Shown here one piece after another: positions 3,087 through 34,511 of a stretch of DNA of 38,281 nt; within the stretch, counting starts at the first letter, position 1, and each line of letters starts with the position of its first letter. The stretch covers positions 1-38,281 of the IMG/VR virus record IMGVR_UViG_2737471992_000010. One strand, written 5' to 3'. This DNA comes from a virus (taxonomy: Duplodnaviria; Heunggongvirae; Uroviricota; Caudoviricetes). The position numbers and the translations under genes are program-made. The notes beneath the pieces are model-generated. The model was not told the DNA's origin, ran no database searches, and saw only the letters and a program-made list of their open reading frames with translations.

Positions 3087-3158
3087 AACGAAACCCGTTT
3101 ATTTGCAAACACCCTGCTTCAGGAAAAGTATACCGCGCAACAACACACCATTTACGGT

Positions 3159-5621
3159 TCAATTCCCTGTTAATTGCAAAACTTGCTCTTCCAGCTTTTT
3201 AACCCTGCGTCTCATCATCGCAGATTCCAGAATCAGAGCCTCTTCATAACGGATACCGTAACATTCACCAGCCTCGACGGCTTCGCGTACCAGAACCTTT
3301 GTCTGTATAAGTGGGTAAACTCCTGCAGAATGCTCTTCTTCCGTCACATCCCTGTATTCTGCCGGGGTCTCATTCCACTTGTCATAACAGATAAATGCCA
3401 GTCGTGACACATCTATGCCTTCATTCTGAAATACACTGATAACATGCTGCGCAACTGCACCAAAGTGCCATCTTGCTCCGTCTTTACCTTTCACTTCGAT
3501 CCTGTCAAGGTACTGGTATGAAACCCATTCCACTCTTTCCCATGCGTCCAGTATTTTCTCATCAATAACCTCTGGAGCAGTCTTGAAACGCGCATCGGAC
3601 AGCACCGTAAACGCTGACTGGGTAAATCCCCCCGACCATGCACGACCAGCCAACCCAAGAGAATAAGTATTCGTTGTCGATGGTGTCATGGCTGAATCAG
3701 AAAACTGTATATATTCTGAATTTCCAGTAGATATTCGAATATTTCCATTTATTAGCGACATAGTGCCTTTAGTATTATCACTATTGAATAATTTCAATTG
3801 CGAACTTATACCGCCTCCCACAGCCAGAGATACATCGCCTTCAGCAAGCATTCTGAATTTATCTGCAGAAACAAGCGTCTGGTTAGCAAGGTTAAAATAT
3901 TTAACCCACCATTCAAAACGCCCTGACATAGTCCCAACGTACTGACCAAGCGCAGGGACGTGAACAACATTGCTATTTGTAGTGCCGTCTATACTGGAAA
4001 TACCAGTCACCGCTGATGCAGAACTCAGAATATTATTTCTGTCACCCGGATGTTTAATTTCAACAAAGTTCCTGATACACCCTTCCTCGAAGGTAACCAC
4101 GCCGGAAGAACTATACATGGGGAATATTGACGCATAATTACTGCGTGCAGCATCTAAGAAACGAATGGTTGTAGATGTCTGCAGATCTCCTGATTCATTT
4201 TTCCCATCACACCCAGTCATTAGAATATTACTGGCAATATTATTATTTCCCTGAACGGTGACTCCGTGCGCCTGCTTTGCGTCCGATTCAGAGTAATCAA
4301 CCAGCACATTCGAAATCAGGTTACCAGTCCCCTTGCCAACAACTACTGCGGCGTATTTTGGGTTGTTAGCCATTACACTGCTAATGATATTATTCGTTGG
4401 GGCAGTTTCCGTCTCAGTTCCATTGTAAACAACGTGCTGACACTCTTCACCAATAACATTGCTGACAATGTTATATTTTGCTGCTGTTTTAAGTTCCACT
4501 GCACCAAACTGAGGATAATTTCTGGCTATCACACCATCAATTAGCGTATTTTGCGATGAATCAAAAAGCACACAACCTGCTTTTTTATTATTTGCGAACC
4601 CTAAATACTCTCCTCTTATATCTCTAACAATGTAACCTGACGGAATACCATTATTCGGATAAGCGATCAAGCTAAATCCTGTTCCTCGCGTATTTGTAAA
4701 TCTGATATTTTTAACCGATACATCATGGCCACCTGAAAATGACACCTGGTGTCCCTGCACACTATCATCTGATTTATTTCCCATAATTGTTAGCGTACTA
4801 AGCATGCCACCATCGGGCATGTTAAAAACCAGATGATTACCATCTCTGTCATACTGTTTTATCGTTCCCCCACCTGTTCCGTACAAGCCACAACGTGAAA
4901 GAGAAACTAAAGATGTATTGAATACCCCTTCCGGAACAAAAACACTGCTAAACGAATGTAATGATTTTGTAAAAGCATCCTTGTTATCATTTAAGATTCC
5001 ATTTTGAGCTCCAAAATCCTTAATGCTGACACCATCACGCATCTTATCCTGGAACGTTCTGTATACCGCTCCAGAACCATACTGAATAAACCAACCAAAA
5101 CCACCAATAACTCCGGCGATTGCAGCATCGACATAATTACGCATTGAGCGATTATTTACAGCGTCCTGCTCAAGTGATGGATCGGCAAGGTTAGATATTC
5201 TGTTTTGCTTTGCATCGTAATATTTTGCAAGCAAAGATGGTTTCATCAATGCACGTCTGAACCACCCAAAACATCGCTGGATCAGCATCGTCAGGTAGTC
5301 AAATGCATCCTCATGAACTTCGGGGAAAAATTTTCCCTGATTGCGAAGATCAGTCTCCTGCACCACATCAAGCACACGCTCTATCGTGATTCGCCAGCCA
5401 GCAGCAAGCGGCGACGGAAGAACCACTGCACCGCCACTATAAGTTCCCGCCCCTGTTACCGTATAACCAGCATCCAGCACTAGTTTTGTAACGTTACCGT
5501 TAAGGTCAGACACCTGAACAACCAGGTCGGATTTTTTGAAAATACGGAAGGTATACGGAAATGATGTCGTAACGCCGTTACCTGTGTATTCGTTGTGGTC
5601 AACTTCGGTTGAGACCGTCAT
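3159..5621 (-). CDS. Tail fiber/tailspike: T7 gp17-like N-terminal adaptor, beta-helix (depolymerase-like) body, C-terminal self-cleaving intramolecular chaperone (peptidase S74-like)
   Basis: 820 aa; N-terminus EYTGNGVTTSFPYTFRIF...LVVQV resembles the T7 tail fibre N-terminal domain; central Gly/Asn/Ser-rich repeats typical of right-handed beta-helix; C-terminal segment with SDARFK motif and coiled-coil tail characteristic of the endosialidase-type chaperone domain. Confidence 0.85.
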   Translation of the reverse strand: MTVSTEVDHNEYTGNGVTTSFPYTFRIFKKSDLVVQVSDLNGNVTKLVLDAGYTVTGAGTYSGGAVVLPSPLAAGWRITIERVLDVVQETDLRNQGKFFPEVHEDAFDYLTMLIQRCFGWFRRALMKPSLLAKYYDAKQNRISNLADPSLEQDAVNNRSMRNYVDAAIAGVIGGFGWFIQYGSGAVYRTFQDKMRDGVSIKDFGAQNGILNDNKDAFTKSLHSFSSVFVPEGVFNTSLVSLSRCGLYGTGGGTIKQYDRDGNHLVFNMPDGGMLSTLTIMGNKSDDSVQGHQVSFSGGHDVSVKNIRFTNTRGTGFSLIAYPNNGIPSGYIVRDIRGEYLGFANNKKAGCVLFDSSQNTLIDGVIARNYPQFGAVELKTAAKYNIVSNVIGEECQHVVYNGTETETAPTNNIISSVMANNPKYAAVVVGKGTGNLISNVLVDYSESDAKQAHGVTVQGNNNIASNILMTGCDGKNESGDLQTSTTIRFLDAARSNYASIFPMYSSSGVVTFEEGCIRNFVEIKHPGDRNNILSSASAVTGISSIDGTTNSNVVHVPALGQYVGTMSGRFEWWVKYFNLANQTLVSADKFRMLAEGDVSLAVGGGISSQLKLFNSDNTKGTMSLINGNIRISTGNSEYIQFSDSAMTPSTTNTYSLGLAGRAWSGGFTQSAFTVLSDARFKTAPEVIDEKILDAWERVEWVSYQYLDRIEVKGKDGARWHFGAVAQHVISVFQNEGIDVSRLAFICYDKWNETPAEYRDVTEEEHSAGVYPLIQTKVLVREAVEAGECYGIRYEEALILESAMMRRRVKKLEEQVLQLTGN

Positions 5622-5724: not shown

Positions 5725-5741
5725 ATTACCTTTCGGGTAAT
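5725..5741. promoter_or_regulatory. 17-bp palindromic operator-like site ATTACC-TTTCG-GGTAAT
   Basis: Perfect inverted repeat in the divergent region between the tail fiber start (5621) and the small antirepressor-like gene (5817). Confidence 0.6.
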
Positions 5742-6104: not shown

Positions 6105-6121
6105 TTTACCTTTGCGGTAAA
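6105..6121. promoter_or_regulatory. 17-bp palindromic operator-like site TTTACC-TTTGC-GGTAAA
   Basis: Perfect inverted repeat, itself nested inside a longer inverted repeat GGAGTGC (6093-6099) / GCACTCC (6130-6136). Confidence 0.55.
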
Positions 6122-6211
6122 TTTACATCGCACTCCTCTTGTGCCATAGTAATCGGGCACTGGCAAAATCCAGTGCCGGGATTGGTCTCCCGGATTACTA
6201 AGTGGCGCATA

Positions 6212-6233
6212 CCACGCCAGACGTGGTTTTTTT
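6212..6233 (+). terminator. Weak terminator-like hairpin plus U-tract
   Basis: CCACG-CCAGA-CGTGG followed by seven T; lies downstream of GC-rich hairpins at 6156-6193. Confidence 0.35.
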
Positions 6234-6391
6234 ATGCGTATAGCACAGTCATGCCAGAATTATGGTGGGCTGAATGGGGGTCCGAAAGGACGCCGGTACC
6301 ACTTAGGCCGGTAAGACCAACTCCGTTCAGTTCACCACCATCTGATTGGTCTCAGCGGTGGTGATGTAATTCGCTAAGTGGAGACGCCATC

Positions 6392-7119: not shown

Positions 7120-7136
7120 ATTACCTTAAAGGTAAA
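7120..7136. promoter_or_regulatory. 17-bp palindromic operator-like site ATTACC-TTAAA-GGTAAA abutting the RBS of the 7148 gene
   Basis: Inverted repeat whose right edge overlaps the AGGAGG RBS (7136-7141) of the ORF starting at 7148. Confidence 0.55.
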
Positions 7137-21323: not shown

Positions 21324-22025
21324 TTATTTGCCATAGAGCACTTCGGCCGCACTACGCTGGCCTTCATTACCACCGGTGACCATGCCATCTTCAGACATCG
21401 CCTTTCCGATTTTCACGAACGTTTTGACCAGATCAGGGTGATTACCCAGTCCGGTGGTGTTCAGATATTCTTTGAGCTCGGGTGTCCCGAACTGGTCAAG
21501 CGCACGCTGTGCGGCGCTAAGGTTAGAAATCAACTTGTCGCCACCAATTTCTTTGTCAGCTTTTACATCAGCAGCCCACTGCTCGGTTGTTTTCTGCCAG
21601 GCTTCTGCCTGGCGCTGCTGCACACCTGCCAGAATCTTCGGATAAGCATCAACCAGCTTTTGCGCTTGCTCGTTGGTCAGGTTTAGTTCTCGCGCCACCG
21701 GCTCGAATTCCTTCAACGCTTCTGTATCCAGCTCTACGCCTTCGGCAGCCTGAAACTCGTACTTTTCAGGCGCACCCTCTGGTTTATCGCCGTCCTTTTT
21801 TTCATCCTGCTTATCGTTTTCAGGCTTTTTGTCATCAGCAGGTTTATCGCCATCAGCAACAGGTTGTGGCTTATCACCTTCCTGTTGTGATGGATCACCA
21901 ACTGGAGCAGGGTTATCACCTGCAGGCGCTGACGGTTCTGACGCAGCCGGAGCTGCTCCACCATCGACTGGTTGCTCATTGCAAAGACGGCGATACAGCA
22001 AACGCTCAAATAAATTCATGATCAC
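21324..22025 (-). CDS. Scaffolding protein
   Basis: 233 aa, highly acidic with repeated P/D/K/E segments, between portal and capsid genes. Confidence 0.65.
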   Translation of the reverse strand: MIMNLFERLLYRRLCNEQPVDGGAAPAASEPSAPAGDNPAPVGDPSQQEGDKPQPVADGDKPADDKKPENDKQDEKKDGDKPEGAPEKYEFQAAEGVELDTEALKEFEPVARELNLTNEQAQKLVDAYPKILAGVQQRQAEAWQKTTEQWAADVKADKEIGGDKLISNLSAAQRALDQFGTPELKEYLNTTGLGNHPDLVKTFVKIGKAMSEDGMVTGGNEGQRSAAEVLYGK

Positions 22026-22318
22026 TCCTGTTCACTGGCCTCTTTGGCCATCTTCAAATACTGTTCAGGGCAATGCGCCATAACGCGCTGAAACAGTTCC
22101 AGCGCCAGATTGCGTTGCCCCTCATTAAATGCCATTGCCATAGCGTCCATCGGTGAGATAGCGGAAAACACACGGCCTTTCTCCAGCACCGACCAGACAA
22201 CGCGACGCCCCTGTTCACTGCTCATGACAAAGCGAATGTCATCAATTTCACGCTGTGCCATGTCACGTTGCTTACGGGCGTTTTCTTCTTTCAGTTGATC
22301 GTCTTCGTAATCTGTCAT
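22022..22318 (-). CDS. Small hypothetical head-module protein
   Basis: 98 aa; overlapping start/stop with the portal and scaffold genes. Confidence 0.45.
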   Translation of the reverse strand: MTDYEDDQLKEENARKQRDMAQREIDDIRFVMSSEQGRRVVWSVLEKGRVFSAISPMDAMAMAFNEGQRNLALELFQRVMAHCPEQYLKMAKEASEQE

Positions 22319-23994
22319 TGTGATTGCCCACCCTGACCACTAACTGCATTCGCCATAGCTGACAACACACTCGGATCCGAAGTTTTAGCTTCGCTTAGCG
22401 TCTTGGCCCCCTGTGCCGCCGCCATCCCCATCGCCATCATTTGTTGCTGCTGTTGTTGCTGTGCCCGTTGCTGGCGAGCCTGCTCAACCTGTTCCTGCGG
22501 AACAATGACGGTTGGAGACACTCCGGACATATCAGCGAATGCATCGATCGCCTGATCAACGTTGAGTTTGTCGAGAGCTTCTGGTTTCGCTTGCGCAAGT
22601 TGACCAATGAAGTTGACCGTAGACGCCAGACTGGACAGGCCGATAGACTTCTGCGCCTGAGCCATGACGGAAATGTATTCGACCTTCAGGGGCATACCTT
22701 CCATCGCGTCAGGCGGTGGCGGCAGCATGTTTTTACGCACCATCATCGAGAAAGCGCGGTCAATGAGAGGATTAAGACATTCGTCGTTCAGACGCTCCAG
22801 AACCGGCCCCAACATCAGAAGTTTTTCTTCTTTCATTTCGATCACTGCTTCAACAGGCATCGAGCGGGTATTGATGTTCTGCAACATCATGAACAGATCG
22901 ACAAAGTAGGCGCTGTTAATGATTTGACGGGTGTCCTGAATGTCTGCCACCAAATCTGCTGTACTGGGGTTAACCAGATAAGCAGGCCTGAAACCATCCT
23001 GACCAGTAATCAGATCGATATACGTGATGTCGCCAGGAAGAAGGGAGGCACGCTGATTCTTGAGGGAAGTCGGAGCAACCATCGGCGGATTGGTGGCTTT
23101 ATCAATCAACTGCGACTTGCGCTTCTGGAGAAGCTGCAATGCCTTAACAGGTCCAAGCGCCAGCATACCCGGGCATGATGATCCATAAACATCTTCGCCG
23201 TTAACTTCCCAGCGCGGAGCCATAATTGGAAACTCATCGAATCCGGACTCACGCAACAACTTGTCGTTATCGCCACCAACCTCGTAATAAACCGATTTGA
23301 ATGGCTTGTTCTTGCTATCCAGCTTCGATGTATCGCGGTCAATGTTCGGGTAAACCGAATGCATCACTTCAATCCACTTCTCGTAGGTGCCGCTTTCCCA
23401 CATGCTTTTTACGGATTCGCTGACGTTATTTAGCCCGAACTCCTGAACAAGCTGACGAACAGTCATAGAGAACTTGCGGAAACAGGTGTCCACACTGCCA
23501 CGAGGTGAGTTAGCCAGGTAGTAACTGCCTATAGGGAATGGCATTGTGCGAATGATGTCCTCGTCATCCTCCAGCACCGCCATTGCACCAGTGCTGTATG
23601 TGCCGAGGCTTCCGTATAACTGCGGAAGAGACTGGTAGAGATTCGACTTATTGAACATATCGTTCATGCGGTTCTGCACCGCCTCAAGCCACAACTTAAC
23701 AGGGCCATAATCCATCATTTCAGGATCTGGCGTAGCCAGGCGAAACCACGGACGGGCGGGGCTTGTGATGCCTGACATCATGCCGCTGGCGAGAGTGCGC
23801 GCCGCCATAGTCCCGGTCGAATCAATAATGCGTGTATTGCGTCGATCGTTACGGTTGACCTCAGAAGTCAGAAAGCGGGAACCACGCGGGTTGATGTAAT
23901 CACTCAACTCGCGCCAGTGCGGCTCGAACGACTGACGCTCGCTTTCAAGTTGTGCGAACTGTTTGTTCAATCGCTCTTTAGTTGTTTCCGCCAT
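22315..23994 (-). CDS. Portal (head-to-tail connector) protein, T7 gp8-like
   Basis: 559 aa; the Gln/Ala/Met-rich C-terminal tail (QQRAQQQQQQQMMAMGMAAAQGA) and N-terminal region resemble the T7 connector. Confidence 0.75.
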   Translation of the reverse strand: MAETTKERLNKQFAQLESERQSFEPHWRELSDYINPRGSRFLTSEVNRNDRRNTRIIDSTGTMAARTLASGMMSGITSPARPWFRLATPDPEMMDYGPVKLWLEAVQNRMNDMFNKSNLYQSLPQLYGSLGTYSTGAMAVLEDDEDIIRTMPFPIGSYYLANSPRGSVDTCFRKFSMTVRQLVQEFGLNNVSESVKSMWESGTYEKWIEVMHSVYPNIDRDTSKLDSKNKPFKSVYYEVGGDNDKLLRESGFDEFPIMAPRWEVNGEDVYGSSCPGMLALGPVKALQLLQKRKSQLIDKATNPPMVAPTSLKNQRASLLPGDITYIDLITGQDGFRPAYLVNPSTADLVADIQDTRQIINSAYFVDLFMMLQNINTRSMPVEAVIEMKEEKLLMLGPVLERLNDECLNPLIDRAFSMMVRKNMLPPPPDAMEGMPLKVEYISVMAQAQKSIGLSSLASTVNFIGQLAQAKPEALDKLNVDQAIDAFADMSGVSPTVIVPQEQVEQARQQRAQQQQQQQMMAMGMAAAQGAKTLSEAKTSDPSVLSAMANAVSGQGGQSQ

Positions 23995-24008
23995 TTCAAT
24001 GACTCCGG

Positions 24009-24215
24009 TTACTGACCAAGCAGCGTTTTACCGCTGGTATTAGCGGTTGATGTGTCGCCCTGAGAACCGGTAAGCAGCGTAGAACTACGACCAGCAGCAG
24101 CGCGACGGCGACGTGTTTCTTCGTCGCGGGCATCAACAACGGCGGCATCCTGCTCCTGTGGTGCTGCCTGAACTTCTGGTGTTGCAGGCACTGATGGTGA
24201 GCTACCCATGCACAT
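24009..24215 (-). CDS. Small acidic protein, first gene of the virion operon
   Basis: 68 aa with GGAG RBS 8 nt upstream; the overlapping 79-aa track ORF 23996..24235 is less plausible. Confidence 0.4.
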   Translation of the reverse strand: MCMGSSPSVPATPEVQAAPQEQDAAVVDARDEETRRRRAAAGRSSTLLTGSQGDTSTANTSGKTLLGQ

Positions 24216-24304
24216 ATCAATGACTCCGTACGCAATTAAATTATTACCAATTTAACCACATATGATTTATTTATCGTAGACAGTTGACATTTAACGCGCG
24301 AATT

Positions 24305-24321
24305 ATTACCTTTCAGGTAAC
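24305..24321. promoter_or_regulatory. 17-bp palindromic operator-like site ATTACC-TTTCA-GGTAAC next to a consensus -35
   Basis: Inverted repeat with TTGACA at 24284-24289 just upstream; lies between the divergent virion operon (minus) and the tRNA/accessory unit (plus). Confidence 0.55.
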
Positions 24322-24642
24322 CAAAGAGTTCATTCCGGTTACTAACCTGACTGGCTTGTCGTTAAATTGAACAGGTGGAGTGAGCTTTTATTTTGAGCAG
24401 TACGGCGTATGGCACATGCGCCGATAGCGGTCTGGATGCGTTTAAGGGGCACCCTCCCTTGCTCGGGCAAACGAACCAGGTAGCCGGAATGTGCAAGTCG
24501 AGCGGTTTTATTCCGCGCACGGGGATTCACCATCCCGGCGATTCGGTGTGACGCCTCGGAAGAGACGAGGGTACAACGATGAGAGCATTTATGGAGCCGC
24601 GACAAAGTGTGGCGCCTTAACAGGCTAAGTGCTCTCAGCGTT

Positions 24643-24719
24643 GTGGCATTAGCTCAGTTGGACAGAGCAACCGCCTTCTAAGCGGTTGGTCGCAGGTTCG
24701 AATCCTGCATGCCACGCCA
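24643..24719 (+). tRNA. tRNA-Arg, anticodon UCU (reads AGA)
   Basis: Hand-folded cloverleaf: 7-bp acceptor stem GTGGCAT/ATGCCAC, D arm GCTC...GAGC, anticodon stem ACCGC/GCGGT with loop CTTCTAA, T arm GCAGG-TTCGAAT-CCTGC, discriminator G and encoded CCA. Confidence 0.9.
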
Positions 24720-24917
24720 GAATCACGCCTAAGGACCGTGATGCCAGAAGTTCCAGGGGCTTGGCGGTGATGGTTTCCCTTGAAGGACTATCACCGCCCT
24801 TTTTACAGCAGGACGCCATTGCGATGACTTCATGCTGTAAACCAGTACAGCCACGGAAGGCATAACTCATTGCTTCCAGTTCGCCCGGTTCGCCGGGCAT
24901 TTTTTTAAGGTGAGATT

Positions 24918-25274
24918 ATGAACGACCAGCAAATCGAAAAAGAAATCGTTGAGAAAGGCAAAACCGCTCCGCGAGTTACGCCTCAATATATCGAAAGCAT
25001 CATTCTTGAAGAGCATTTCTTTACTGCTTATGACGGCATTCGTGCTGCCAATATGGGCGTTGGCGATTCATGGACAGCGCATAAATCTACAGACCTCCTG
25101 ACTTTCTGCGTATTGGTACTGAAGAATGGCTTCACCGTCACCGGAGAGAGTGCCTGTGCAAGTCCGGAAAATTTTGATGCAGAAATTGGTCGGAAGATTG
25201 CCCGACAGAATGCTGTAAACAAAATCTGGATGCTTGAAGGTTACTTGCTGAAGCAGAAGTTAAGCGAGCAATAA
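24918..25274 (+). CDS. Accessory phage protein, possibly N4 gp49 / Sf6 gp66 family
   Basis: 118 aa with AAGGTGAG RBS; family assignment is from memory of similar sequences and is tentative. Confidence 0.4.
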   Translation: MNDQQIEKEIVEKGKTAPRVTPQYIESIILEEHFFTAYDGIRAANMGVGDSWTAHKSTDLLTFCVLVLKNGFTVTGESACASPENFDAEIGRKIARQNAVNKIWMLEGYLLKQKLSEQ

Positions 25275-25294
25275 CACCGTGACATATCACAAAC

Positions 25295-25321
25295 AGCCAG
25301 CCTATGAGCTGGCTTTGTTTT
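25295..25321 (+). terminator. Rho-independent terminator between convergent genes
   Basis: AGCCAGC-CTATGA-GCTGGCT stem-loop followed by TTTGTTTT. Confidence 0.6.
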
Positions 25322-25364
25322 ATCCTCATCAGAGGATATCAACAACATTATCCCCTCAAGCGGA

Positions 25365-26840
25365 TTAAGCATAGGGATCGTAATCTGTGATGGCCTTGCC
25401 TTGCTGGTTCTGCTGCCCGGGAATTCGCAGACGCTTAGACACAGGGAACGCAAACGTCAGCAGTAGCGCATCGCCTTTACCAGGAGAACGCCCAAGTCGC
25501 TCTTTGATATCTTCCTTCGGTTCGATAACGATTTTACCGTCCACGCGAACTTTGTACTCTGCCGTCGACAGGTCGTCCGCTGTTTCCTGGTCATCCAGCA
25601 TGCCGCCGAGCCTCAGCCATGTCTTGCATGAGTTGAACATCTCCCCACGCTTGTTGAGCATCTGCGGGTCAGTAGACGCGCCACCGAACGGAACAAGTTG
25701 CCATGTACGACCCCAGCCATCACCGATTGACTTCAAACCGGTTCCGTAACCGAAGTCGATGAACACCGCGTCAGCCTGATACTGGTCTTCAAAGTCAGCG
25801 ATACGCTTCGCCATAATCAGATCGTCAGTGGTCTTGTTGCCAGTCCACAGCACCTTACTGTGCAGCCCCTGCCGCAGGTATATCACAGCGTCATCAACAC
25901 CGGAGTATGCCGGGTCAACGCCGATTATCACCGGAGCATGTGCCACCTGCGCAGCGGTTACCACCCGTTTCATTGCCTCGTCAGTAAGACCGGTAGGGAT
26001 AAACTGCAATTCAGATGCATCCGGGAATATGCCGCGCACACGGATTTTAACGAAGTCGCTGTCTTCCCCGTAGTCATCAACCCATTTCTGCAACTGCTGT
26101 TTGTTGGTGCCTTCCACCGTCCGGCTGTCAATCTGCGCAGTTTTCCAGCGGTGTTTATACTTGCGGAAACATTCACGGAATCGCCCGGTATTACGCGTCG
26201 GGTTTCCGAACGCCACCCAGATAATCTCAGTGTCTTCGTCCGTAAGCGCACCCTCAGCAACTTCCCACACCAGATCCGCAATGTTCGACGCTTCATCGAA
26301 TACCACGATGATGCGTTTGCGCTCGTTGTGTAATCCGGCGAATGCCTCAGTGTTGTGCTCAGACCAGGGGATTGCGTCAGCTCGCCACCGCTTGTCGTGC
26401 CCAGGATCATTGCTGTACATCGCGGTAGCGGTACAGGTAAACCAGTCTTTCGTGATAGCAAGGTTCGACCACTTGATAATTTCCGGCCAGGTCTTCGTTC
26501 GTAGCTGGTTGTCGGTGTTGGCGGTCACCACGACCTTACAATCCTCGCAAGTGGACATGCCCCAGTTGATCAGCATTGAGATGAATGCGGATTTACCAAT
26601 ACCGTGACCAGAAGCGCGTGCCAGCATAAGCGGCTGATAGCGCGTCTCTGGATTCTGCAGGTGATCACGTATCTCTCGGAACGCATCAGCCTGCCACTGA
26701 CGTGGACCGGTGGCATGTGCCAGTTCAGTCCCCTCTTCCCCCCACGGGAACGCATAGAGGGCATAGCCAAGCGGATCGTGAGTGAACCCTGCAATATCCT
26801 CGATCAACTGTTCTTCAGGAGATAACGCTGCATCTGTCAC
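25365..26840 (-). CDS. Terminase large subunit
   Basis: 491 aa; Walker A-like ASGHGIGKS, downstream acidic nuclease-type motifs; follows the small subunit gene with a 4-nt overlap. Confidence 0.85.
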   Translation of the reverse strand: MTDAALSPEEQLIEDIAGFTHDPLGYALYAFPWGEEGTELAHATGPRQWQADAFREIRDHLQNPETRYQPLMLARASGHGIGKSAFISMLINWGMSTCEDCKVVVTANTDNQLRTKTWPEIIKWSNLAITKDWFTCTATAMYSNDPGHDKRWRADAIPWSEHNTEAFAGLHNERKRIIVVFDEASNIADLVWEVAEGALTDEDTEIIWVAFGNPTRNTGRFRECFRKYKHRWKTAQIDSRTVEGTNKQQLQKWVDDYGEDSDFVKIRVRGIFPDASELQFIPTGLTDEAMKRVVTAAQVAHAPVIIGVDPAYSGVDDAVIYLRQGLHSKVLWTGNKTTDDLIMAKRIADFEDQYQADAVFIDFGYGTGLKSIGDGWGRTWQLVPFGGASTDPQMLNKRGEMFNSCKTWLRLGGMLDDQETADDLSTAEYKVRVDGKIVIEPKEDIKERLGRSPGKGDALLLTFAFPVSKRLRIPGQQNQQGKAITDYDPYA

Positions 26841-27433
26841 TGATTGCCATCCTGACGTTCTTTCAGTCTCTTCCTGGCTGCCGCTATGCGATCAGCAATT
26901 GTCACATTCACATTAACATCCAGGCGTTCTTTGAATGCATTGACATCGACGTGCTTACCAATCAGCTCAAGGTTCTTCACCTTGTCAGGCCATTTAATTT
27001 TTTTGAGGATTGTCTCTATCGAATCCTCGTTCATGTTCATGATGGTCGATGACAGATCAAAGCCGCTAAGCGTAGTGCGCCAGATTTTCGGCCACTCGCG
27101 GATTGGCTTAAGGCTCCCATCGTCGTTGAGGATATCAATCACGTCCATCTGGTCGATCTCCACCAGGCGCATGAGAACGTAATCAGCACTGACGCGCATT
27201 CGTTTGTTGCGCTCCTCCATCAACTCGGCAATCCGTTTTTGAATGCGTTCATCGCGCATCATGACACTGGCTTTAACTGCCGCTGTATTTGGGGAGAATC
27301 CTGCGTTAATCGCTGCCTGAGTCTGGTTTTCAGGCGTTTTGATGTATGACTGGCAATAAGCCTCCTGCATTGCTGTTAGTGGCTTAAATTGCGTTGATTT
27401 GCGTTTATAGGCTTTAGGTTCAGCAGGCATCAT
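26837..27433 (-). CDS. Terminase small subunit
   Basis: About 198 aa from MMPAEPKAYKRK; conserved TAMQEAYCQSYIKTP...AAINAGFSPNTA region; the track N-terminal extension (27434-27511) looks spurious. Confidence 0.7.
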   Translation of the reverse strand: MMPAEPKAYKRKSTQFKPLTAMQEAYCQSYIKTPENQTQAAINAGFSPNTAAVKASVMMRDERIQKRIAELMEERNKRMRVSADYVLMRLVEIDQMDVIDILNDDGSLKPIREWPKIWRTTLSGFDLSSTIMNMNEDSIETILKKIKWPDKVKNLELIGKHVDVNAFKERLDVNVNVTIADRIAAARKRLKERQDGNQ

Positions 27434-27551
27434 AACCACCGTGGTAATAGTTACCGTTGTGGTAATAGTACCATGCAAAATAAAGCCGCCATAGTTGGCG
27501 GCAGTATTCAAAACCCGTCAAATTCATCATGCATAATCTACTCGTGACATG

Positions 27552-27890
27552 TCACACTATTAATTTCGTTTCATGCCAGCCTTTAGTCACCCAGCATTGT
27601 GAGTCACCATTACACGGACATGAATTAACTGGAACTCTCTCGCCGCACTTACCGCAACGTGTTCTGCTGATCGATTTTATACGCCCGTGCACGCGTGCAT
27701 CATCCTGGCGGATCAGTAACGCTATATACTCACCAAATTCGTAAGGCGCACGCCCGGGGCGACGCGTGGCACAGTTACGCTCCAGCATTTCAATTTCCTG
27801 AGCATCAAGCACAATCTCCAGCTTACGCACACCAGATGCAGCTTGTCTGGCTCTCTGAGCGGCTTTGCGCTCTGCTGCTGATTTAGCCAT
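27552..27890 (-). CDS. Basic protein with C-terminal Cys-rich zinc-ribbon-like motif, at the Q/late-regulator position
   Basis: 112 aa; Arg/Lys-rich N-terminus, CGKCGERVPVNSCPCNGDSQC near the C-terminus; immediately upstream of terminase. Confidence 0.4.
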   Translation of the reverse strand: MAKSAAERKAAQRARQAASGVRKLEIVLDAQEIEMLERNCATRRPGRAPYEFGEYIALLIRQDDARVHGRIKSISRTRCGKCGERVPVNSCPCNGDSQCWVTKGWHETKLIV

Positions 27891-28236
27891 TCTGATTTTC
27901 CTGCATCATGAGAAATACAATCATGGCGGCTCGGAGTGGATTATTCGCATGAAAGCAAATGTTCTCGGCATTAAAAACAGCTGACCACTCACCGCGAGAG
28001 TGGTGGCAGGTTAGACTGATTTTATTATCAACAATAATAGGCCATGCATCCGATGGATTATTGCAGTAGTCAGGTAAAGGGTTTAATGGCTCAAAAGTTG
28101 TATCAGTATTTCCGTAATACCATTTGTTGGTGTTATTCCCTGATGTTTCCGGTTTACACGCCCAAAGGCCTTTAAAAATTATGTCTCCTACCATTCTGTT
28201 AATTTCAAAATCACTTAACTGTGAATAGTCCATCAT
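27883..28236 (-). CDS. NinX/DUF2591-like phage protein
   Basis: 117 aa; composition and length resemble the DUF2591 family of lambdoid nin regions (from memory). Confidence 0.4.
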   Translation of the reverse strand: MMDYSQLSDFEINRMVGDIIFKGLWACKPETSGNNTNKWYYGNTDTTFEPLNPLPDYCNNPSDAWPIIVDNKISLTCHHSRGEWSAVFNAENICFHANNPLRAAMIVFLMMQENQNG

Positions 28237-29147
28237 TTCACCTCCTGCGGTGGTTCCGGTAGCGGCATCCAGTGGGTTGCTTGCTCAATACCATTACCCG
28301 GCTTAATCGTTGCATCTCCGCGCCGAAAGGTGCTTCCGGTATAGCGTGCGGAGCATATTAGCGGTTCAACCAGAGAGCTATCGAAATTCACCGAAATAAG
28401 CACGTTCTGGCCCTTTTCAGGCATTCGCTCACTACAGCTTATCCAACCATCCGGAGTTACCGGAGAGTTGCCTGCCAGTCTACGCAAAACAGCCTTAACA
28501 GCCTCAATACGGTCATCATCGTAACTTTCCGCCGTATCTATGCGGTCGAGCATGATGATTGCGTTATCAATATCAGGATTGCCGGTCCACTCATTACCGC
28601 GATTGGATTCGGCAGCCTGGTTGCCGCGTACTGGTTGATTGTCGGCTTTACCCAGTCTGTCGTCGCTGCATGAATGCCCTTCCAGCCAGGCCAATGCTTG
28701 TCGCATGAAATACGCAATATGTTTGCCGTGGTAATCGTCTTCATCGATGTGAAAAGCGATACTGCGGATGTATTCAATTGCGTTTTCAATGGCCTCCGGC
28801 GTTATCGGAGTTGGTCCATCGAATTCGGGCATGTCAGGACCTTTTCTGATAGCTTTAGCCAGCTCCAGCGGGTCATCGTAAAGCCAGTCGCCAGTTTGTG
28901 GGTGATTTGCTTCTGCAAGCTGCGCAGCCCATTCAAGACCATCTTTTTGACCTTGGAGATAATCAAGCGGCAACTCTTCATGATTACTTGCAGGTTCGGC
29001 ACTATCAGCTTCGCGCCGCTTCTGTAGCTCTGCTGCCATTGCTCTCACGACTTCAACTGGTGCCCTTGCAGCAAACTCTATGTTGGTGATTAGCTCATTA
29101 AGATATTGCTCGCCTGGATACTGTTTCTTATCGGTTATAGTGGTCAT
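28233..29147 (-). CDS. Hypothetical protein with DUF551-like C-terminal domain
   Basis: Start reassigned to the ATG at 29147 (AGGGAGAG RBS); C-terminal DGWISCSERMPEKGQNVLI...WMPLPEPP pattern typical of DUF551. Confidence 0.5.
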   Translation of the reverse strand: MTTITDKKQYPGEQYLNELITNIEFAARAPVEVVRAMAAELQKRREADSAEPASNHEELPLDYLQGQKDGLEWAAQLAEANHPQTGDWLYDDPLELAKAIRKGPDMPEFDGPTPITPEAIENAIEYIRSIAFHIDEDDYHGKHIAYFMRQALAWLEGHSCSDDRLGKADNQPVRGNQAAESNRGNEWTGNPDIDNAIIMLDRIDTAESYDDDRIEAVKAVLRRLAGNSPVTPDGWISCSERMPEKGQNVLISVNFDSSLVEPLICSARYTGSTFRRGDATIKPGNGIEQATHWMPLPEPPQEVK

Positions 29148-29148
29148 A

Positions 29149-29784
29149 TCACTCTCCCTTGATGCCAATGTTTACAGCTTGGCAAGCCTCTTTGAGCACC
29201 CAGTCAACAGCGTCTTTCCATGCTCCGGTTTCGACTGGCGGGTTCTCACGTTTTACCTGCTCATAAAAACGCACCGCTTTAATCAGTCCTTCAGGTACTA
29301 CTGGCGATGGCTGTTTAGCTTCTAAATCAGCAATTCTGTCAACTACGGCATCTACTGCATCTGAAAAACCGAACCAGTTACTCCACTCAGGCCTATCCCC
29401 GGTTGCTGCAAAATACATATCAGCTAAAGCAGACTCAGCATGGTCACGCTCGTTAATGAGTTGCTCTTCGCTTTTCTCCAGTTCAGCAATACGCTTACTT
29501 CCATCCGAGATAACACCTTCGTAATATTCACGCTGCTCGTTGAGTTTTGATTTTGCCAACTCCAGTTGTTTTGTTAGTTCCGCAATACGGCAAACATCGT
29601 TGATACGCGTTTCCTCTAATGCGTTGATCTCATCCAACAATGCCAGCGCGATATCTGGCGAAAAGTGCTTCATAAAATCGTTAAGCGCATTAATTCGCTG
29701 ATCGAAAGGCATTACAGGTGCTTCACCAGCAATTTTTGTTTTTTCAGCGATTTCACGAAGCTTTTGATAATCAATCTTGCTCAC
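29149..29784 (-). CDS. Ead/Ea22-like coiled-coil protein
   Basis: 211 aa, charged coiled-coil, in the early-right accessory region. Confidence 0.45.
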   Translation of the reverse strand: MSKIDYQKLREIAEKTKIAGEAPVMPFDQRINALNDFMKHFSPDIALALLDEINALEETRINDVCRIAELTKQLELAKSKLNEQREYYEGVISDGSKRIAELEKSEEQLINERDHAESALADMYFAATGDRPEWSNWFGFSDAVDAVVDRIADLEAKQPSPVVPEGLIKAVRFYEQVKRENPPVETGAWKDAVDWVLKEACQAVNIGIKGE

Positions 29785-30266
29785 TGGTTGCCCTCCTTCA
29801 TAAAAATAATCCAGTGGGTCTTGTCACCCTTTCCTGTTCGTTGACCGATAACAGGCTTTCTGTCTGTCAGTGCCAATATTTGGCGAACAGGTATTTGCGT
29901 TTCATTCCATTTAAAAATCAGAACACCATATGGCCACAACACACGAAAGGCTTCTTTAAATCCCTGCCGCAAATCATCACGCCAGGTATCTTTATTCAGC
30001 CGTCCATATTTCTTTCCCATCCAGGCGTTATCACCAACACGCTCAAGATGCGGAGGGTCGAATACAACAACCGGAAACGATGCGTCTGCAAATGGTAATG
30101 CACGAAAATCTGCTATCAGGTCAGGGCTAATTATCAGCCGTCGGCCATCACACAATATGTGATCTTCCTTTCTGATATCGCTAAATATCGCCCGGTCGTC
30201 CTTCTTATCGAACCAGAACATGCGACTGCCACAGCACATGTCGAGGATTGCTGCATGTCCAGTCAC
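29781..30266 (-). CDS. Small orphan DNA methyltransferase (amino-methyltransferase type, DPPH motif)
   Basis: 161 aa; SAM-binding-like LDMCCGSR near the N-terminus and catalytic-type tetrapeptide DPPH (VVVFDPPHL); no adjacent restriction gene. Confidence 0.55.
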   Translation of the reverse strand: MTGHAAILDMCCGSRMFWFDKKDDRAIFSDIRKEDHILCDGRRLIISPDLIADFRALPFADASFPVVVFDPPHLERVGDNAWMGKKYGRLNKDTWRDDLRQGFKEAFRVLWPYGVLIFKWNETQIPVRQILALTDRKPVIGQRTGKGDKTHWIIFMKEGNQ

Positions 30267-30919
30267 TGGTTGCCTCCTTTGCGAAGCTGGGCGGCAAAGT
30301 CAGTCGCATGCTCACCGAGTAGTTTCCAGTTATCGCGTATATCAGATGCAAGCGACTGTTCGGATTTTGAGTTACATTTCTGTGCAAACATCTCCAATCC
30401 CTGCGCCCGCACTTCAGCCAGGCATTTGCGAAACTCGGAAACGTACTGTTCGACGCTCATTCCCCAGCTAAGTGGACATTCATTGAATGTTTCGCCTTCG
30501 TGCTCTTCATCAGGTAGCTCTTTGGTAAAGAACTCACGTTCAATGGCGTGGAGTGTGTCAGCAAAACGACGTAAGTTACTCAAACCTGTCGTAATGGAGA
30601 ATTCAGGAGCATCACATCCGACGCCCATCTGCTGATAAACGGCGGTTTTGAAGGCCTTAAGCCCCGCATTCTCCGCTGCCAGCGCCGAAAACTTCTCATG
30701 TGCCAACTTAACAGCCGAATCAGCCTGCTTAATTGACTCAATCGCTCTCTGGTGGTCTTCGGCCAGCGCATTAGCACGCACCAGTTGCACTTCCAGTTGC
30801 GTTGCCAAATCGCTGATCAGCTTTGTCACACTGCGCATATCAACGGCACCACATTCTGCTTTCAGTTCCGAAGCCATCTCATGCCCGGCGGCAACTAACC
30901 CTTTGATATTACTTTCCAT
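30263..30919 (-). CDS. Ead/Ea22-like hypothetical protein
   Basis: 218 aa, coiled-coil rich N-terminal half; overlaps the downstream methylase start. Confidence 0.4.
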   Translation of the reverse strand: MESNIKGLVAAGHEMASELKAECGAVDMRSVTKLISDLATQLEVQLVRANALAEDHQRAIESIKQADSAVKLAHEKFSALAAENAGLKAFKTAVYQQMGVGCDAPEFSITTGLSNLRRFADTLHAIEREFFTKELPDEEHEGETFNECPLSWGMSVEQYVSEFRKCLAEVRAQGLEMFAQKCNSKSEQSLASDIRDNWKLLGEHATDFAAQLRKGGNQ

Positions 30920-30980
30920 CTTTACCCTCGCTTATCCACATAACTTATTGATTACACTGATAACTAAAAAGATCGTCGAT

Positions 30981-31325
30981 TCAGAACTCTTCGATGTTCC
31001 AGCCACCACCTGCTTTCTTTGGCTTAACCGTTACCCCGATGATTCGGAACGGATACTGATCTGCGGCGACTTTGGTTTTCACCCTGGCGTCGTCGGTCCA
31101 GAAACCTTTCACTTCGTGCAGTTCCATCTCGCCGGTGGCGAGCATCACAGCAAAATCGGGCGTATAGAACGTGTTGTCAGCTAACCGCAACTTGATACCC
31201 TCGAATCGATACCAGGCGATTTCCCCTGCACGTTTACGCTGCTCAAGGTGCTGGCAATACGCAGATTCTGTTTTGTTCATCTGGCCTGTTTTGAGTCGAC
31301 CAAGAGCCTGCATCTGTTTTCTCAT
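30981..31325 (-). CDS. DUF1064-family phage protein
   Basis: 114 aa; pattern NKTE..Y...LE..K.AGEI..Y.FE.IKL.LA...YTPDF.V...GE.E.HEVKG typical of DUF1064 proteins found next to phage replication genes. Confidence 0.6.
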   Translation of the reverse strand: MRKQMQALGRLKTGQMNKTESAYCQHLEQRKRAGEIAWYRFEGIKLRLADNTFYTPDFAVMLATGEMELHEVKGFWTDDARVKTKVAADQYPFRIIGVTVKPKKAGGGWNIEEF

Positions 31326-31327
31326 GA

Positions 31328-31406
31328 TTTACCCATGAGGTAATTAAAAACCACATAAGACACGAAATCAATAGATCTTAGAACATTTTATTACCTAGCA
31401 GGTAAT
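31328..31406. promoter_or_regulatory. Two 17-bp palindromic operator-like sites (31328-31344 TTTACC-CATGA-GGTAAT; 31390-31406 ATTACC-TAGCA-GGTAAT)
   Basis: Both inverted repeats lie in the 117-bp gap between the P stop and the DUF1064 start; the first abuts the DUF1064 start codon. Confidence 0.55.
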
Positions 31407-31442
31407 TATCAAGACGTAAAAAAATGCGCTATCGCGCTGGTA

Positions 31443-32243
31443 TTACTTGATAAATCCTGCCGCCTTTCCCCGCCTGTATTCCTCCATCAGCCACTGCGCC
31501 GGTGTTATTCCCCCCAGGGTAGCGGCGTTAGGCATACACCCGAAACTTCGCCCTGGTGGATGGTAAACGTCTCTCCCTGTGTCCGGAGGCGTACTCATGG
31601 GTTCTGGCTTTGCCTGTATGCTGATCACCGGATCGGGTATCTGCTGTCCGGAAGCCACCTTTTTCGCCCAATCATCAAGCAGCCTGCGCGCGTGTTTCTC
31701 AACCTCAATCTCGCTAAGCTGGCGCTGATACATTGCACGGCGGGTATCACATACGACCCAGTACATAACCGGATGCCGCCACGGGAATCTTTCGGGACCA
31801 CCAGGATATAAACTTTTTTCCTTGCTGTACCGGTGAAACTCCGCCATCACATCGTCAATGGTGACGCCAAGAACCATCTTGCTGTCTTTACACCACTTGA
31901 TAAATTGCCCTGGCGACGGCCAGAACGGAGATTCACTGGCGCGGGCGTGGCGCATACCAGCAGAAACCTGTTCACGGGTTCGGATCCCCCCTTCGGCAAA
32001 CGCAGCAATCCACTGCTGTTTTGCAGCAACTTCCTGCTCTGGCGTCTTCAGGTTGGTTACCACTGCCGCCGGAAACAGTTGTTTCAACTGTTTGAAAAGG
32101 GCATCAACAAGCCTCTCTGCTGACATGTTCACTACGTTGTCATTGTTGGTGTACTGATGCTCATAACCTGACATGCGAGAAAGGGCTTCTCCGTCACGGT
32201 TTTGTATCGCGGTAAAAACGTTGTTCACAAGAAATCCTCCCAT
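31443..32243 (-). CDS. Replication protein P-like (helicase loader)
   Basis: Segment GMRHARASESPFWPSPGQFIKWC matches lambda P GMRVARRQNRPFLPSPGQFVAWC; start may be the internal ATG at 32174. Confidence 0.75.
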   Translation of the reverse strand: MGGFLVNNVFTAIQNRDGEALSRMSGYEHQYTNNDNVVNMSAERLVDALFKQLKQLFPAAVVTNLKTPEQEVAAKQQWIAAFAEGGIRTREQVSAGMRHARASESPFWPSPGQFIKWCKDSKMVLGVTIDDVMAEFHRYSKEKSLYPGGPERFPWRHPVMYWVVCDTRRAMYQRQLSEIEVEKHARRLLDDWAKKVASGQQIPDPVISIQAKPEPMSTPPDTGRDVYHPPGRSFGCMPNAATLGGITPAQWLMEEYRRGKAAGFIK

Positions 32244-33040
32244 GCTTCAGGGCTGTTCCAGTGCGGAACGTTGTTATCAGGTAATGTTGATTGCTTCTGT
32301 CTGCTAATCTGCAGCCGCCTTGCCAGCTTCTGCTCCCACTGTGCCTGATGGTATGCCCTACCCTCAGCCATCCAGTAAATTCTGAACTCTGCAAGTTCCT
32401 GTGCCGTTGGCAGACTGTCCAGGTAGATCCCCTGCAATGAGCTTTTCCGAAGAAAGTCATCTGATGGCTGCCATTGTTCATGCATGACAAATTTGCCTAA
32501 TTGCCCTGGCCCACCAGGAGGAACAAAGTTATTCATCACGGCGTTGTTTGCGCCGGGGTCATGATGCACAGAATCCCCGTTTTTTGTCCTGCTCTCCCTC
32601 TCTTGGTTAAATGACTGGTTATATGACTGGTTCTGGATCCCGTTTTTGGGATCATTCAACATCCCGTTTTTGGGATCATTCAACATCCCGTTTTTGGGTA
32701 TATTCCCGTTTTCGGGAACATTACCGTTTTCGGGTTCATTACCCCCTTCCCGGTTGCCTTTAATGTTCCCGTTTTTGGTTATATTAAGAGAGAAAACCCG
32801 CACTCTTTTCGTCGCTCCCTTTCTCTCTCCGGTATCTGAAATAAGCCCCATTTTCATGAGCGATATAAGCCCGGCCTGCACGGTTTTTTTATTCAGGCAA
32901 GTGTCTTTAACGAGGCGTTCTATGCTGGGGTAGCAGAGGTTATATTCATCGGCTCTGTCAGCCATCGAGAGCAGTATGAGCTTTAATGACGAGCTACCTG
33001 GATCTGTCTCCCAGGCCCAATCTGTTGCATGTCTGCTCAT
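32225..33040 (-). CDS. Replication initiator O-like protein with ori iterons inside the gene
   Basis: 271 aa; N-terminal HTH-like region, central NG/PENG/PKNG peptide repeats encoded by DNA iterons; immediately upstream of the P-like gene as in lambda O-P. Confidence 0.7.
   Translation of the reverse strand: MSRHATDWAWETDPGSSSLKLILLSMADRADEYNLCYPSIERLVKDTCLNKKTVQAGLISLMKMGLISDTGERKGATKRVRVFSLNITKNGNIKGNREGGNEPENGNVPENGNIPKNGMLNDPKNGMLNDPKNGIQNQSYNQSFNQERESRTKNGDSVHHDPGANNAVMNNFVPPGGPGQLGKFVMHEQWQPSDDFLRKSSLQGIYLDSLPTAQELAEFRIYWMAEGRAYHQAQWEQKLARRLQISRQKQSTLPDNNVPHWNSPEAWEDFL
32637..32781. repeat. Origin iterons: 5-6 copies of ATCCCGTTTTTGGGAT-like inverted repeat at about 24-bp spacing, followed by an AT-rich stretch
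   Basis: Perfect copies at 32637-32652 and 32661-32676; degenerate copies at 32685-32700, 32703-32718, 32721-32736 and about 32766-32781; AT-rich atattaagagagaaaa follows. Confidence 0.75.
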
Positions 33041-33672: not shown

Positions 33673-33737
33673 TTCACCTATAAGGTAACAAAAATCAAGG
33701 ATAGTTACCCATGAGGTGCATTTACCTGTTGGGTAAT
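33673..33737. promoter_or_regulatory. OR-like operator cluster: three 17-bp sites (33673-33689 TTCACC-TATAA-GGTAAC; 33704-33720 GTTACC-CATGA-GGTGCA; 33721-33737 TTTACC-TGTTG-GGTAAT)
   Basis: Three tandem copies of the palindrome in the 154-bp divergent region between the Cro-like gene (start 33637) and the repressor gene (start 33792). Confidence 0.6.
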
Positions 33738-34432: not shown

Positions 34433-34511
34433 ATTACCTAACGGGTAATTTTTTTAACTCATATCTATTGACATCAAACCAGATACGCATAATTATTACC
34501 TCAACGGTAAC
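34433..34511 (+). promoter_or_regulatory. PL-like promoter with two flanking operator sites (34433-34449 ATTACC-TAACG-GGTAAT; 34495-34511 ATTACC-TCAAC-GGTAAC)
   Basis: Consensus -35 TTGACA at 34468-34473, -10-like AATTAT about 17 nt later overlapping the second palindrome; GAGG RBS and ATG at 34530 follow. Confidence 0.55.

Follow-up and report, generated by a model that had tools for sequence, protein, structure and literature searches.

Growth of the lambdoid phage HK022 is independent of Nus factors, and the mEp phage collection has been described as Nus-dependent. HK022, which lacks N, encodes in cis a structured RNA (put) that lies just past a repressor-controlled early promoter, with terminators downstream. 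The put RNA is ~70 nt in length and contains two stem-loops (PMC9378689). Left and right copies of put follow PL and PR, the early leftward and rightward promoters. Sites of the rrn and lambda nut type are also leader elements with a purine-loop hairpin (boxB), a boxA, and downstream terminators; in the lambda type, boxB is the binding site of an N protein that has an arginine-rich motif. Other non-coding RNAs adjoin a tRNA or a tRNA-like structure at which ribonuclease P (RNase P) sets their ends, or occur together with phage tRNA genes, as is the case for the C4 RNA of P1, the CI RNA of P4, and the stable RNAs of the T4 tRNA cluster. The MALAT1 RNA likewise is matured through its mascRNA (PMC8457004). 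The subject of this report is a conserved core RNA of ~180 nt, encoded on the plus strand at 24396-24576 of a 38,281-nt stretch of viral DNA (IMG/VR record IMGVR_UViG_2737471992_000010). This entire stretch is referred to as the window.

The window corresponds to an E. coli prophage of the Uetakevirus type, similar to phiV10 and epsilon15. The core resembles put in its location just past a predicted repressor-controlled early promoter with terminators downstream, and its strongly conserved nucleotides would suit binding to the host RNA polymerase. The core differs from put in length, in its four helices and pseudoknot, and in its single copy, with none on the rightward side. The leader position, the purine-loop hairpin P5, and the downstream terminators resemble an rrn or lambda-type nut site, and phage SfIV has a boxA module at the position of the core in phage cdtI. 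However, the boxA modules are separate elements, found in SfIV and in locus L092, and none is conserved in the core or in the terminal stem that follows it. No boxA (CGCUCUUA or GCUCUUUAACAA) is found within 24300-24920. The core has no sequence or structure homology to the MALAT1, C4, CI, or T4 RNAs, but the RNA abuts a tRNA or a tRNA-like cloverleaf, and processing of the tRNA 5'-end would therefore set the 3'-end of the upstream RNA, within a protective helix. The adjoining tRNA-Arg(UCU) is canonical and unremarkable in itself, and it decodes a codon (AGA) that is enriched in this phage. It is unlike the usual phage-borne tRNA-Arg in its spacerless fusion to a conserved RNA, and tRNA-like cloverleaves replace it in related cassettes. 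These RNAs are the nearest functional parallels to what is proposed for the core, which is itself a member of none of these groups. From comparative sequence analysis, we rate the core as a new RNA family with no match in Rfam.

Structure and Conservation of the Core RNA

All elements of the core are located on the plus strand. Helix H1 is formed by 24403-24410 and 24416-24423. Helix P2 (24431-24434/24477-24480) encloses a variable hairpin, and a near-invariant 19-mer, GGUAGCCGGAAUGUGCAAG, is located at 24479-24497. A second variable hairpin, P3, spans 24502-24516. Helix P4 is formed by 24522-24525 and 24533-24536, and in a pseudoknot CACC at 24528-24531 pairs with GGUG at 24545-24548. Hairpin P5 (24554-24558/24566-24570) presents the loop GAAGAGA. 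The structure made up of helices H1, P2, P4, and P5 and the pseudoknot was tested on alignment A1, which contains 33 representatives that are less than 95% identical.

In alignment A1, 97.5% of the cells are paired, compared with 30-51% when the partners are slid by 1-3 columns. Double-sided changes appear in 11 pairs and 77 cells. Four of the five summary measures are matched by none of 500 shuffles, and the fifth (further pair types) is matched by 25 of the 500. The covariation of the pseudoknot is confined to its first pair, where CACC/GGUG is replaced by AACC/GGUU in 3 of the 33 sequences; the remaining three pairs show no variation, or departures through unpaired cells only. The stem of P5 covaries and its purine-rich loop is conserved. 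The single-stranded segments of the core are near-invariant, hairpins are located at both ends, and G-U pairs are tolerated on the plus strand only. The leader folds with a z of -3.4 relative to shuffled sequences.

A covariance model of the core (R1) matches the window at 24396-24576 with a score of 151.9 bits (E of 3e-41, the E-values of this model being rough). Scores of 124-170 bits are obtained across phages of Escherichia, Klebsiella, Salmonella, Enterobacter, and Erwinia. There is exactly one R1 match per locus or genome, and the model detects no second, diverged copy in the window or in the rightward operons. When positions 24100-25000 were compared with Rfam 15, no leader match was obtained at the gathering threshold or at E values up to 10 besides the tRNA and noise. 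The core and leader were similarly unmatched in Rfam for 14 related loci and for the leaders of mEp460 and SopranoGao.

The first-pass annotation, made from the sequence of the window alone, had described this region as a hairpin-rich leader with no convincing open reading frame (ORF), and had named a decayed coding sequence as the contrary case. The structured RNA is borne out by covariation, without any Rfam family being matched, whereas the notion of a generic leader gives way to a discrete, horizontally shuffled RNA family. A protein-coding origin was rejected: stops interrupt all six frames in 6 of the 33 representatives, the lengths modulo 3 are distributed 15/9/9 and thus lack a three-base periodicity, and no reading frame is open across the 33 representatives. 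Hypothetical proteins are annotated over the core in public records, including mEp460_037 (L002 2943-3311), Tyrion gp54 (L011 2601-2762), and phiV10 2656-3356, sometimes on the opposite strand. These coding sequences are very likely spurious.

In the RNAalifold prediction, by contrast, the 19-mer pairs with the H1 region, in part through the invariant GCACAU/AUGUGC; this fold excludes H1 and shows no double-sided covariation. The modeled pairing could be a second pseudoknot or an alternative conformer. A pseudoknot between the H1 loop and the 19-mer through GCACAU/AUGUGC is at most a candidate, as its two strands are invariant and isolated variants have no compensating change.

Two same-sense identities with ribosomal RNA (rRNA) were observed. 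The segment CGGTGTGACGCCT (24544-24556) is an identical 13-mer of E. coli 23S rRNA, and TGCAAGTCGAGCGGT (24492-24506) matches 14 of 15 bases in the 5'-domain of 16S rRNA, in a segment that is variable in other subfamilies. Both are probably coincidental. No complementarity between the core and rRNA was found above chance, and pairing of the core with the C4 and isrK RNAs of the same phage was no better than for shuffled controls.

Distribution and Modular Context

The segment 24402-24642 recurs at 72-82% identity in unrelated phages, as determined by BLAST. A scan of viral contigs with the 19-mer GGTAGCCGGAATGTGCAAG identified at least 120 loci. Exact-match pattern scans inflate the apparent invariance, and this was offset through independent anchors. 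The P4-pseudoknot anchor recovers the core in viral contigs, and the 19-mer differs there by single substitutions only. The H1/J-region anchor provided 22 true matches in the genome collection, of which 21 are from Enterobacteriaceae or Erwinia and one is from a metagenome-assembled genome labeled Bacillota that is probably misassigned; six other pattern matches, all in distant metagenome-assembled genomes, were discarded as chance. The core is present in 1840 of 5426 complete E. coli genomes (about a third), in up to four copies, and no annotated feature lies under it among the matches listed. A full-text literature search found the 19-mer or the H1 motif in no paper. Literature searches on phiV10, epsilon15, the P1 ban operon, early-leftward RNAs, and tRNA-like RNAs yielded no account of the core, and the element is not mentioned in a preprint on the P1 transcriptome. 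The Pas small RNAs were considered and are unrelated, late-region RNAs.

The core is found in three contexts: before tRNA-Arg in the Uetakeviruses, just after PL in N-less lambdoid phages, and between trnI and ban in P1-like phage-plasmids. In mEp460, cdtI, Stx2a_1447, mEp390, and BUCT708 (deposited as a Stenotrophomonas phage), the core lies immediately downstream of a cI-type repressor gene, on the same strand, at the PL position. In P1, P7, D6, SJ46, and hundreds of P1-like plasmids, it is part of the C1-controlled ban operon. The P1 copy occupies NC_005856 71023-71191. The virulent Klebsiella phage SopranoGao has the core ~10 nt after its own TTGCAA-18-TATATT promoter. The core also appears in some Shiga toxin (Stx) phages of the Stx2a, Stx2c, and Stx2k types and in O157 typing phages.

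The core is always co-oriented with transcription. Among 131 oriented loci, tRNA-Arg(UCU) is immediately downstream in 27 and tRNA-Ile2(CAU) is immediately upstream in 18. A strict scan identified promoter-like sites within 130 nt upstream at 22% of loci, compared with 3% of control windows; this enrichment is only modest because many of the promoters have weak hexamers. An intrinsic terminator precedes any ORF with a ribosome-binding site at 89 of 145 unique loci. Subfamilies have entirely different sequences after P5, and the distance from the 19-mer to the nearest terminator ranges from 177 to more than 1000 nt.

Phages cdtI and SfIV share the same PL promoter, downstream terminator, and operon, with the core in cdtI only. 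At that position SfIV (L216 1225-1262) carries a small module made of a hairpin and a perfect rrn-type boxA, GCUCUUUAACAA. The module, in which the hairpin leads into GCUCUUUAACAAUC, is shared with L092 (1609-1650), L036, and L049. It occupies the PL leader of SfIV-like phages that apparently lack N, and may serve there as an rrn-like antiterminator of an early operon.

The core is followed by a terminal stem module on the plus strand, in which CAACGAUGAGAGCAUU (24574-24589) and AGUGCUCUCAGCGUUG (24628-24643) form a 16-bp stem. There are 17 distinct versions of this stem with compensatory changes, and one mismatch is conserved. The last base of the stem, G24643, is base 1 of the tRNA, with no spacer. 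A boxA within the stem was rejected, as the boxA-looking strand (UGCUCU) covaries freely with its partner. The stem encloses a 38-nt insert, UUUAUGGAGCCGCGACAAAGUGUGGCGCCUUAACAGGCUAAG (24590-24627), that is nearly identical in mEp460-type phages (L002 3191-3228) and in a prophage of K. pneumoniae ATCC 13883 (L146). The insert is seemingly under selection, since it has remained near-identical while the enclosing stem changed by compensatory substitutions. It contains GACAAAG, which is reminiscent of the P22 boxB loop. Upstream of the core, a degenerate stem module at 24321-24395 (plus strand) was recognized from alignment A2 and a motif survey. The intact form in Tyrion, KpST512, and epsilon15 reads ACAAC-...AAAGCGCG...GGAGUGCGCUU..GUGUG.

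The GUUGUGG junction is found in most of the 131 loci, where the RNA directly abuts a tRNA or a tRNA-like cloverleaf. At most loci without a tRNA, GUU/GUGG leads into a module that starts with GUGGUGA, ends with UCACCAC, and folds as a cloverleaf-like four-way junction. In SopranoGao (L008 2432-3215), CAAC...GUUG stem modules alternate with tRNA-like cloverleaves, the final one of which scores 29.7 bits and reaches the Rfam tRNA threshold. Further stem/cloverleaf arrays are located at L002 3236-3380 and L216 2050-2185. The first ~45 nt of the cloverleaf (GUGGUGAAUGCGCAGGCUGAUGCGCG) is more than 90% identical in many unrelated Klebsiella, Erwinia, and Cronobacter phages, including phages of 160 kb. 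IME207 and the P1-like RCS47 have the tRNA-like module alone, at 96-97% identity. The stem, core, and tRNA-like modules shuffle independently among phages. An int-alpA RNA (RF02996, 44 bits) was also observed in the intergenic RNA island of Tyrion, at L011 3598-3662.

The Transcription Unit in the Window

In the window, the region 24284-24906 is best explained as an early, repressor-controlled, non-coding RNA operon, with a putative promoter and operator at its head. A sigma-70-type promoter was read from the sequence at 24284-24312 (plus strand), with a TTGACA -35 hexamer at 24284-24289, a 17-bp spacer, and a TACCTT -10 hexamer at 24307-24312. A promoter scan also detected an overlapping alternative, TAGACA-18-AATTAT. 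The -35 hexamer, the -10 hexamer (TACC-T), and the 17-bp spacing recur in epsilon15, Tyrion, and the Klebsiella phage KpST512 (alignment A2), with one-base changes to TTGACC (-35) in KpST512 and TACCCT (-10) in Tyrion.

The palindrome TTACCTTTCAGGTAA at 24306-24320 overlaps the -10 hexamer and the start site. Its consensus, TTACC-N5-GGTAA, occurs 14 times in the window, compared with 0.48 expected, and none of 100 shuffles reaches 14. With 14 copies, one of which covers the -10 hexamer, the palindrome behaves as an operator for a repressor, dispersed in the manner of the P1 C1 operators, and the arrangement looks like a P1-style regulon in which one repressor would act through many operators. 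The copies are scattered over the prophage, for example at 5726-5740, 7121-7135, 27451-27465, 31391-31405, 33722-33736, and 34496-34510. A search of the window for internal targets yielded only these operator repeats. One of the copies, at 6106-6120, lies just upstream of isrK (6157-6233) and a C4 antisense RNA (6258-6342), both identified with Rfam, and by its layout the region 6106-6342 of this Uetakevirus is an antirepressor control module of the P1 immI type. The isrK and C4 pair was also found in mEp460, cdtI, and Stx2a_1447. With P1, which we take to be the source of C4, all three core-bearing phage groups would carry C4-type RNAs.

The tRNA-Arg(UCU) was located by ARAGORN at 24643-24719 on the plus strand, with an encoded CCA. 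The anticodon (tct) is at position 35 and the 3'-end reads ...CACGCCA. The Rfam model RF00005 matches 24643-24716 with 73.3 bits, relative to a gathering score of 29. The AGA and AGG codons are used 7.5 and 5.2 times per 1000 codons in the ORFs of the window. The usage in E. coli is roughly 2 and 1 per 1000, and the window is several-fold above these values; codon supplementation is therefore plausible but ordinary. The excess is found in the tail, injection, and early genes, and these codons are nearly absent from the capsid, portal, and terminase genes.

Two strong intrinsic terminators follow the tRNA. A trailer hairpin (AUCACG...CGUGAU) at 24722-24742 is conserved in alignment A2. Terminator T1, with a 14-bp stem and a U tract, is located at 24763-24805 (24763-24798 in the terminator scan). 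The T1 stem covaries in alignment A2, and its flanks, UUGGCGGU...ACCGCCCUUUUUACA, are also found behind the tRNA-like modules of lambdoid phages. A conserved segment of ~100 nt between the terminators (24806-24906) contains two hairpins and then T2, which is formed by GCCCGG-UUCG-CCGGGC and U7 at 24883-24906 (24883-24898 in the scan). All of these elements are on the plus strand. The segment 24806-24906 is kept in epsilon15 despite the loss of the tRNA and the core there. By sequence, it looks like an Hfq-type small RNA or an attenuator leader of the gene that follows, and its sole hint in Rfam is a RyhB-like match with an E of 1.6, which is not significant.

The gene that follows encodes 118 amino acids at 24918-25274 (plus strand) and belongs to Pfam PF13876 (N4 gp49/Sf6 gp66; E of 1.7e-34). 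The U tract of T2 ends 12 nt upstream of its start codon, and its ribosome-binding site directly follows T2. A bidirectional terminator, T3, at 25295-25314, was detected by scans of both strands and is shared with the convergent terminase gene. 

The neighboring virion genes are on the minus strand: the portal gene (22315-23994), a small ORF (24009-24215), and the large terminase gene (25365-26840), as given in the ORF list. The plus-strand tRNA sits between the portal and the large terminase. BLAST aligns the 702-bp intergenic block at 98-99% identity with phiV10, TL-2011b, and O157 typing phages 9 and 10. In epsilon15 (L001 2807-2976), and likewise in some relatives, a deletion spans mid-core to mid-T1; in epsilon15 it took out half of T1, the tRNA, and the larger part of the core. 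The unit is therefore ancestral to the genus and can be dispensed with. In the epsilon15 record, this region bears annotations of an RNase III site and a repressor site.

Much of the first-pass annotation agrees with these results. The sequence contains the TTGACA -35 hexamer and the operator palindrome at the -10 position that it had reported, and the repressor control it proposed is likely, as the dispersed 14-copy palindrome overlaps the -10 hexamer. ARAGORN and Rfam both identify its canonical tRNA-Arg(UCU), the ORF list places this tRNA on the strand opposite the flanking virion genes, and the 118-amino acid gene and subsequent terminator (T3) were found as described. Its suggestion of a codon-supplementing tRNA remains plausible, with the codon excess in the tail, injection, and early genes and not in capsid, portal, and terminase. 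The unit had been called inserted; it is present in all Uetakeviruses examined and is not a recent insertion. The placement of the 118-amino acid gene on one transcript with the tRNA had overlooked T1 and T2, and with two terminators intervening the gene is not simply co-transcribed.

Possible Functions of the Core RNA

We tentatively favor the proposal that the core is a cis-acting early-leader RNA that promotes read-through of terminators, with maturation by RNase P at the tRNA junction. On derepression, the host RNA polymerase would transcribe the core first. Cleavage by RNase P at the 5'-end of the tRNA (GUU^GUGG) would free the tRNA and provide the upstream RNA with a defined 3'-end held in the 16-bp stem. 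The core would act in cis on the transcribing polymerase, or against Rho, and would sustain transcription through the untranslated tRNA or tRNA-like array and the downstream terminators. Its near-invariant single-stranded segments would form the contact surface for a conserved host component. In the window, some transcripts would pass T1 and T2 and express the gp49-family gene. In the N-less lambdoid phages, the PL transcripts would pass the terminator ahead of the early-left operon. By keeping transcription going through terminators, the core would work like HK022 put or rrn/nut, while being unrelated to them. In favor of this proposal, the core consistently lies behind a predicted early promoter under repressor control, with a long untranslated RNA after it, and cdtI has the core where SfIV has the hairpin and boxA. 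The sole protein gene of the window unit can be reached only via read-through of T1 and T2, and no N-like protein was found among the early ORFs of mEp460 with PHROGs. Phage mEp460 is from a collection described as Nus-dependent (PMC11893012).

Several observations weigh against this proposal. There is one core per genome and none in the PR operons, whereas put and nut sites are paired left and right. No sequence similarity to the put regions of HK022 was found, as neither blastn-short nor the R1 model gave a match within HK022 bases 22000-32500. A polymerase that ignores T1 and T2 would probably not stop at the weaker T3 either and would then proceed antisense over ~8 kb of minus-strand genes (terminase and early). 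Loci L092, L036, and L049 have the core followed by a boxA module, and since both are present the two are not simple alternatives. The P1 core is located 2.3 kb into its operon, behind three tRNAs. The epsilon15-type phages lost the core and keep T2 and the ORF. In SopranoGao, the record ends after only ~750 nt of RNA modules downstream of the core.

A wider formulation is put forward with more reserve. The core may represent a new class of RNA antiterminator or anti-Rho element, unrelated to put and nut and possibly Nus-dependent, that drives early operons and tRNA or tRNA-like arrays through terminators in temperate enterobacterial phages, including P1 and some Stx phages; or it may act in trans, as a new phage RNA that traps a conserved factor of the host when lytic growth begins.

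The main rival to the cis-acting proposal, a trans-acting function, is possible but somewhat less likely. Here the core, with or without the stem module, would be a self-contained gene for a stable early RNA, released by RNase P at the tRNA or tRNA-like junction in the manner of MALAT1, C4, and CI. This RNA would bind or sequester a conserved host protein or RNA at lytic onset, and the terminators would just end the operon. Such a product is suggested by a terminal stem that ends exactly at base 1 of the tRNA, by a GUU/GUGG junction that in most other loci abuts a cloverleaf-like module (one at 29.7 bits), and by hairpins at both ends of an RNA whose single-stranded segments are near-invariant. 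The core is conserved whatever lies downstream (ban, a 63-amino acid ORF, a bidirectional terminator, or RNA arrays), its modules shuffle independently and travel with their own terminator, it is present in a single copy per genome, and in SopranoGao a promoter, the core, and an RNA array stand at the end of the record. However, no partner was found among rRNA, C4, and isrK, for which complementarity is at chance level. A trans-acting RNA also leaves unexplained the passage of the terminator ahead of the early-left operon in the N-less lambdoid phages and the consistent position of the core at the head of early operons. The cis-acting and the stable trans-acting explanations both survive and are not mutually exclusive.

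The three remaining explanations are less likely than either of these. A riboswitch-like sensor, in which an aptamer for a metabolite or second messenger would tune early transcription, is improbable. Strongly conserved unpaired junctions, the pseudoknot, and the 5'-leader position are in keeping with an aptamer, and the RNAalifold pairing (GCACAU/AUGUGC), which is mutually exclusive with H1, could serve as a switch between H1 and the H1-19-mer conformer. That pairing lacks double-sided covariation, however, no Rfam riboswitch was matched, and there is no consistent expression platform, as the downstream sequence and the distances to terminators and ribosome-binding sites vary widely.

It is equally improbable that the core is a giant nut-like site, in which P5 and hairpins with GAAAGA loops would be boxB-like elements recognized by an arginine-rich antiterminator whose gene lies elsewhere. 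With the loop GAAGAGA, P5 resembles a boxB, its stem covaries while the purine loop is conserved, and similar hairpins are found in the leaders of mEp390 and BUCT708; Tyrion has a hairpin at the same position with another loop (AGACGUAA). An N-like protein encoded in the rightward operon is used by mEp021 (PMC11893012). On the other hand, the search for an N-like protein covered mEp460 only and found none among its early ORFs, and the boxA-looking strand of the terminal stem covaries freely and is thus not a boxA. Neither P1 nor the Uetakeviruses are known to encode N.

A non-functional origin of the core, as a decayed coding region, debris of a tRNA operon, or a site that acts as DNA (for instance an origin or an inverted-repeat mobile element), is very improbable: hypothetical coding sequences are annotated over the core, the neighboring modules are tRNA-derived, and the stems are inverted repeats at the DNA level, but compensatory changes occur in five helices with G-U tolerated on one strand only, no frame is open across the family, and 124-170 bits are held across phages of five genera, always in the direction of transcription.

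A pseudoknotted RNA of ~180 nt, with neither an Rfam family nor an annotation, is thus carried by about a third of complete E. coli genomes and is found upstream of ban in P1. If the core controls elongation, phages would have a third way, besides nut and put, of using RNA for early antitermination, and the core would explain the expression of the leftward operon in N-less lambdoid phages, including the excision functions relevant to the induction of Stx phages. A core acting in trans would instead give phages a new means of commandeering a conserved component of the host. Whichever holds, spurious protein annotations are corrected, and stem-loops and tRNA-like cloverleaves are revealed as parts of a modular system exchanged between phages.

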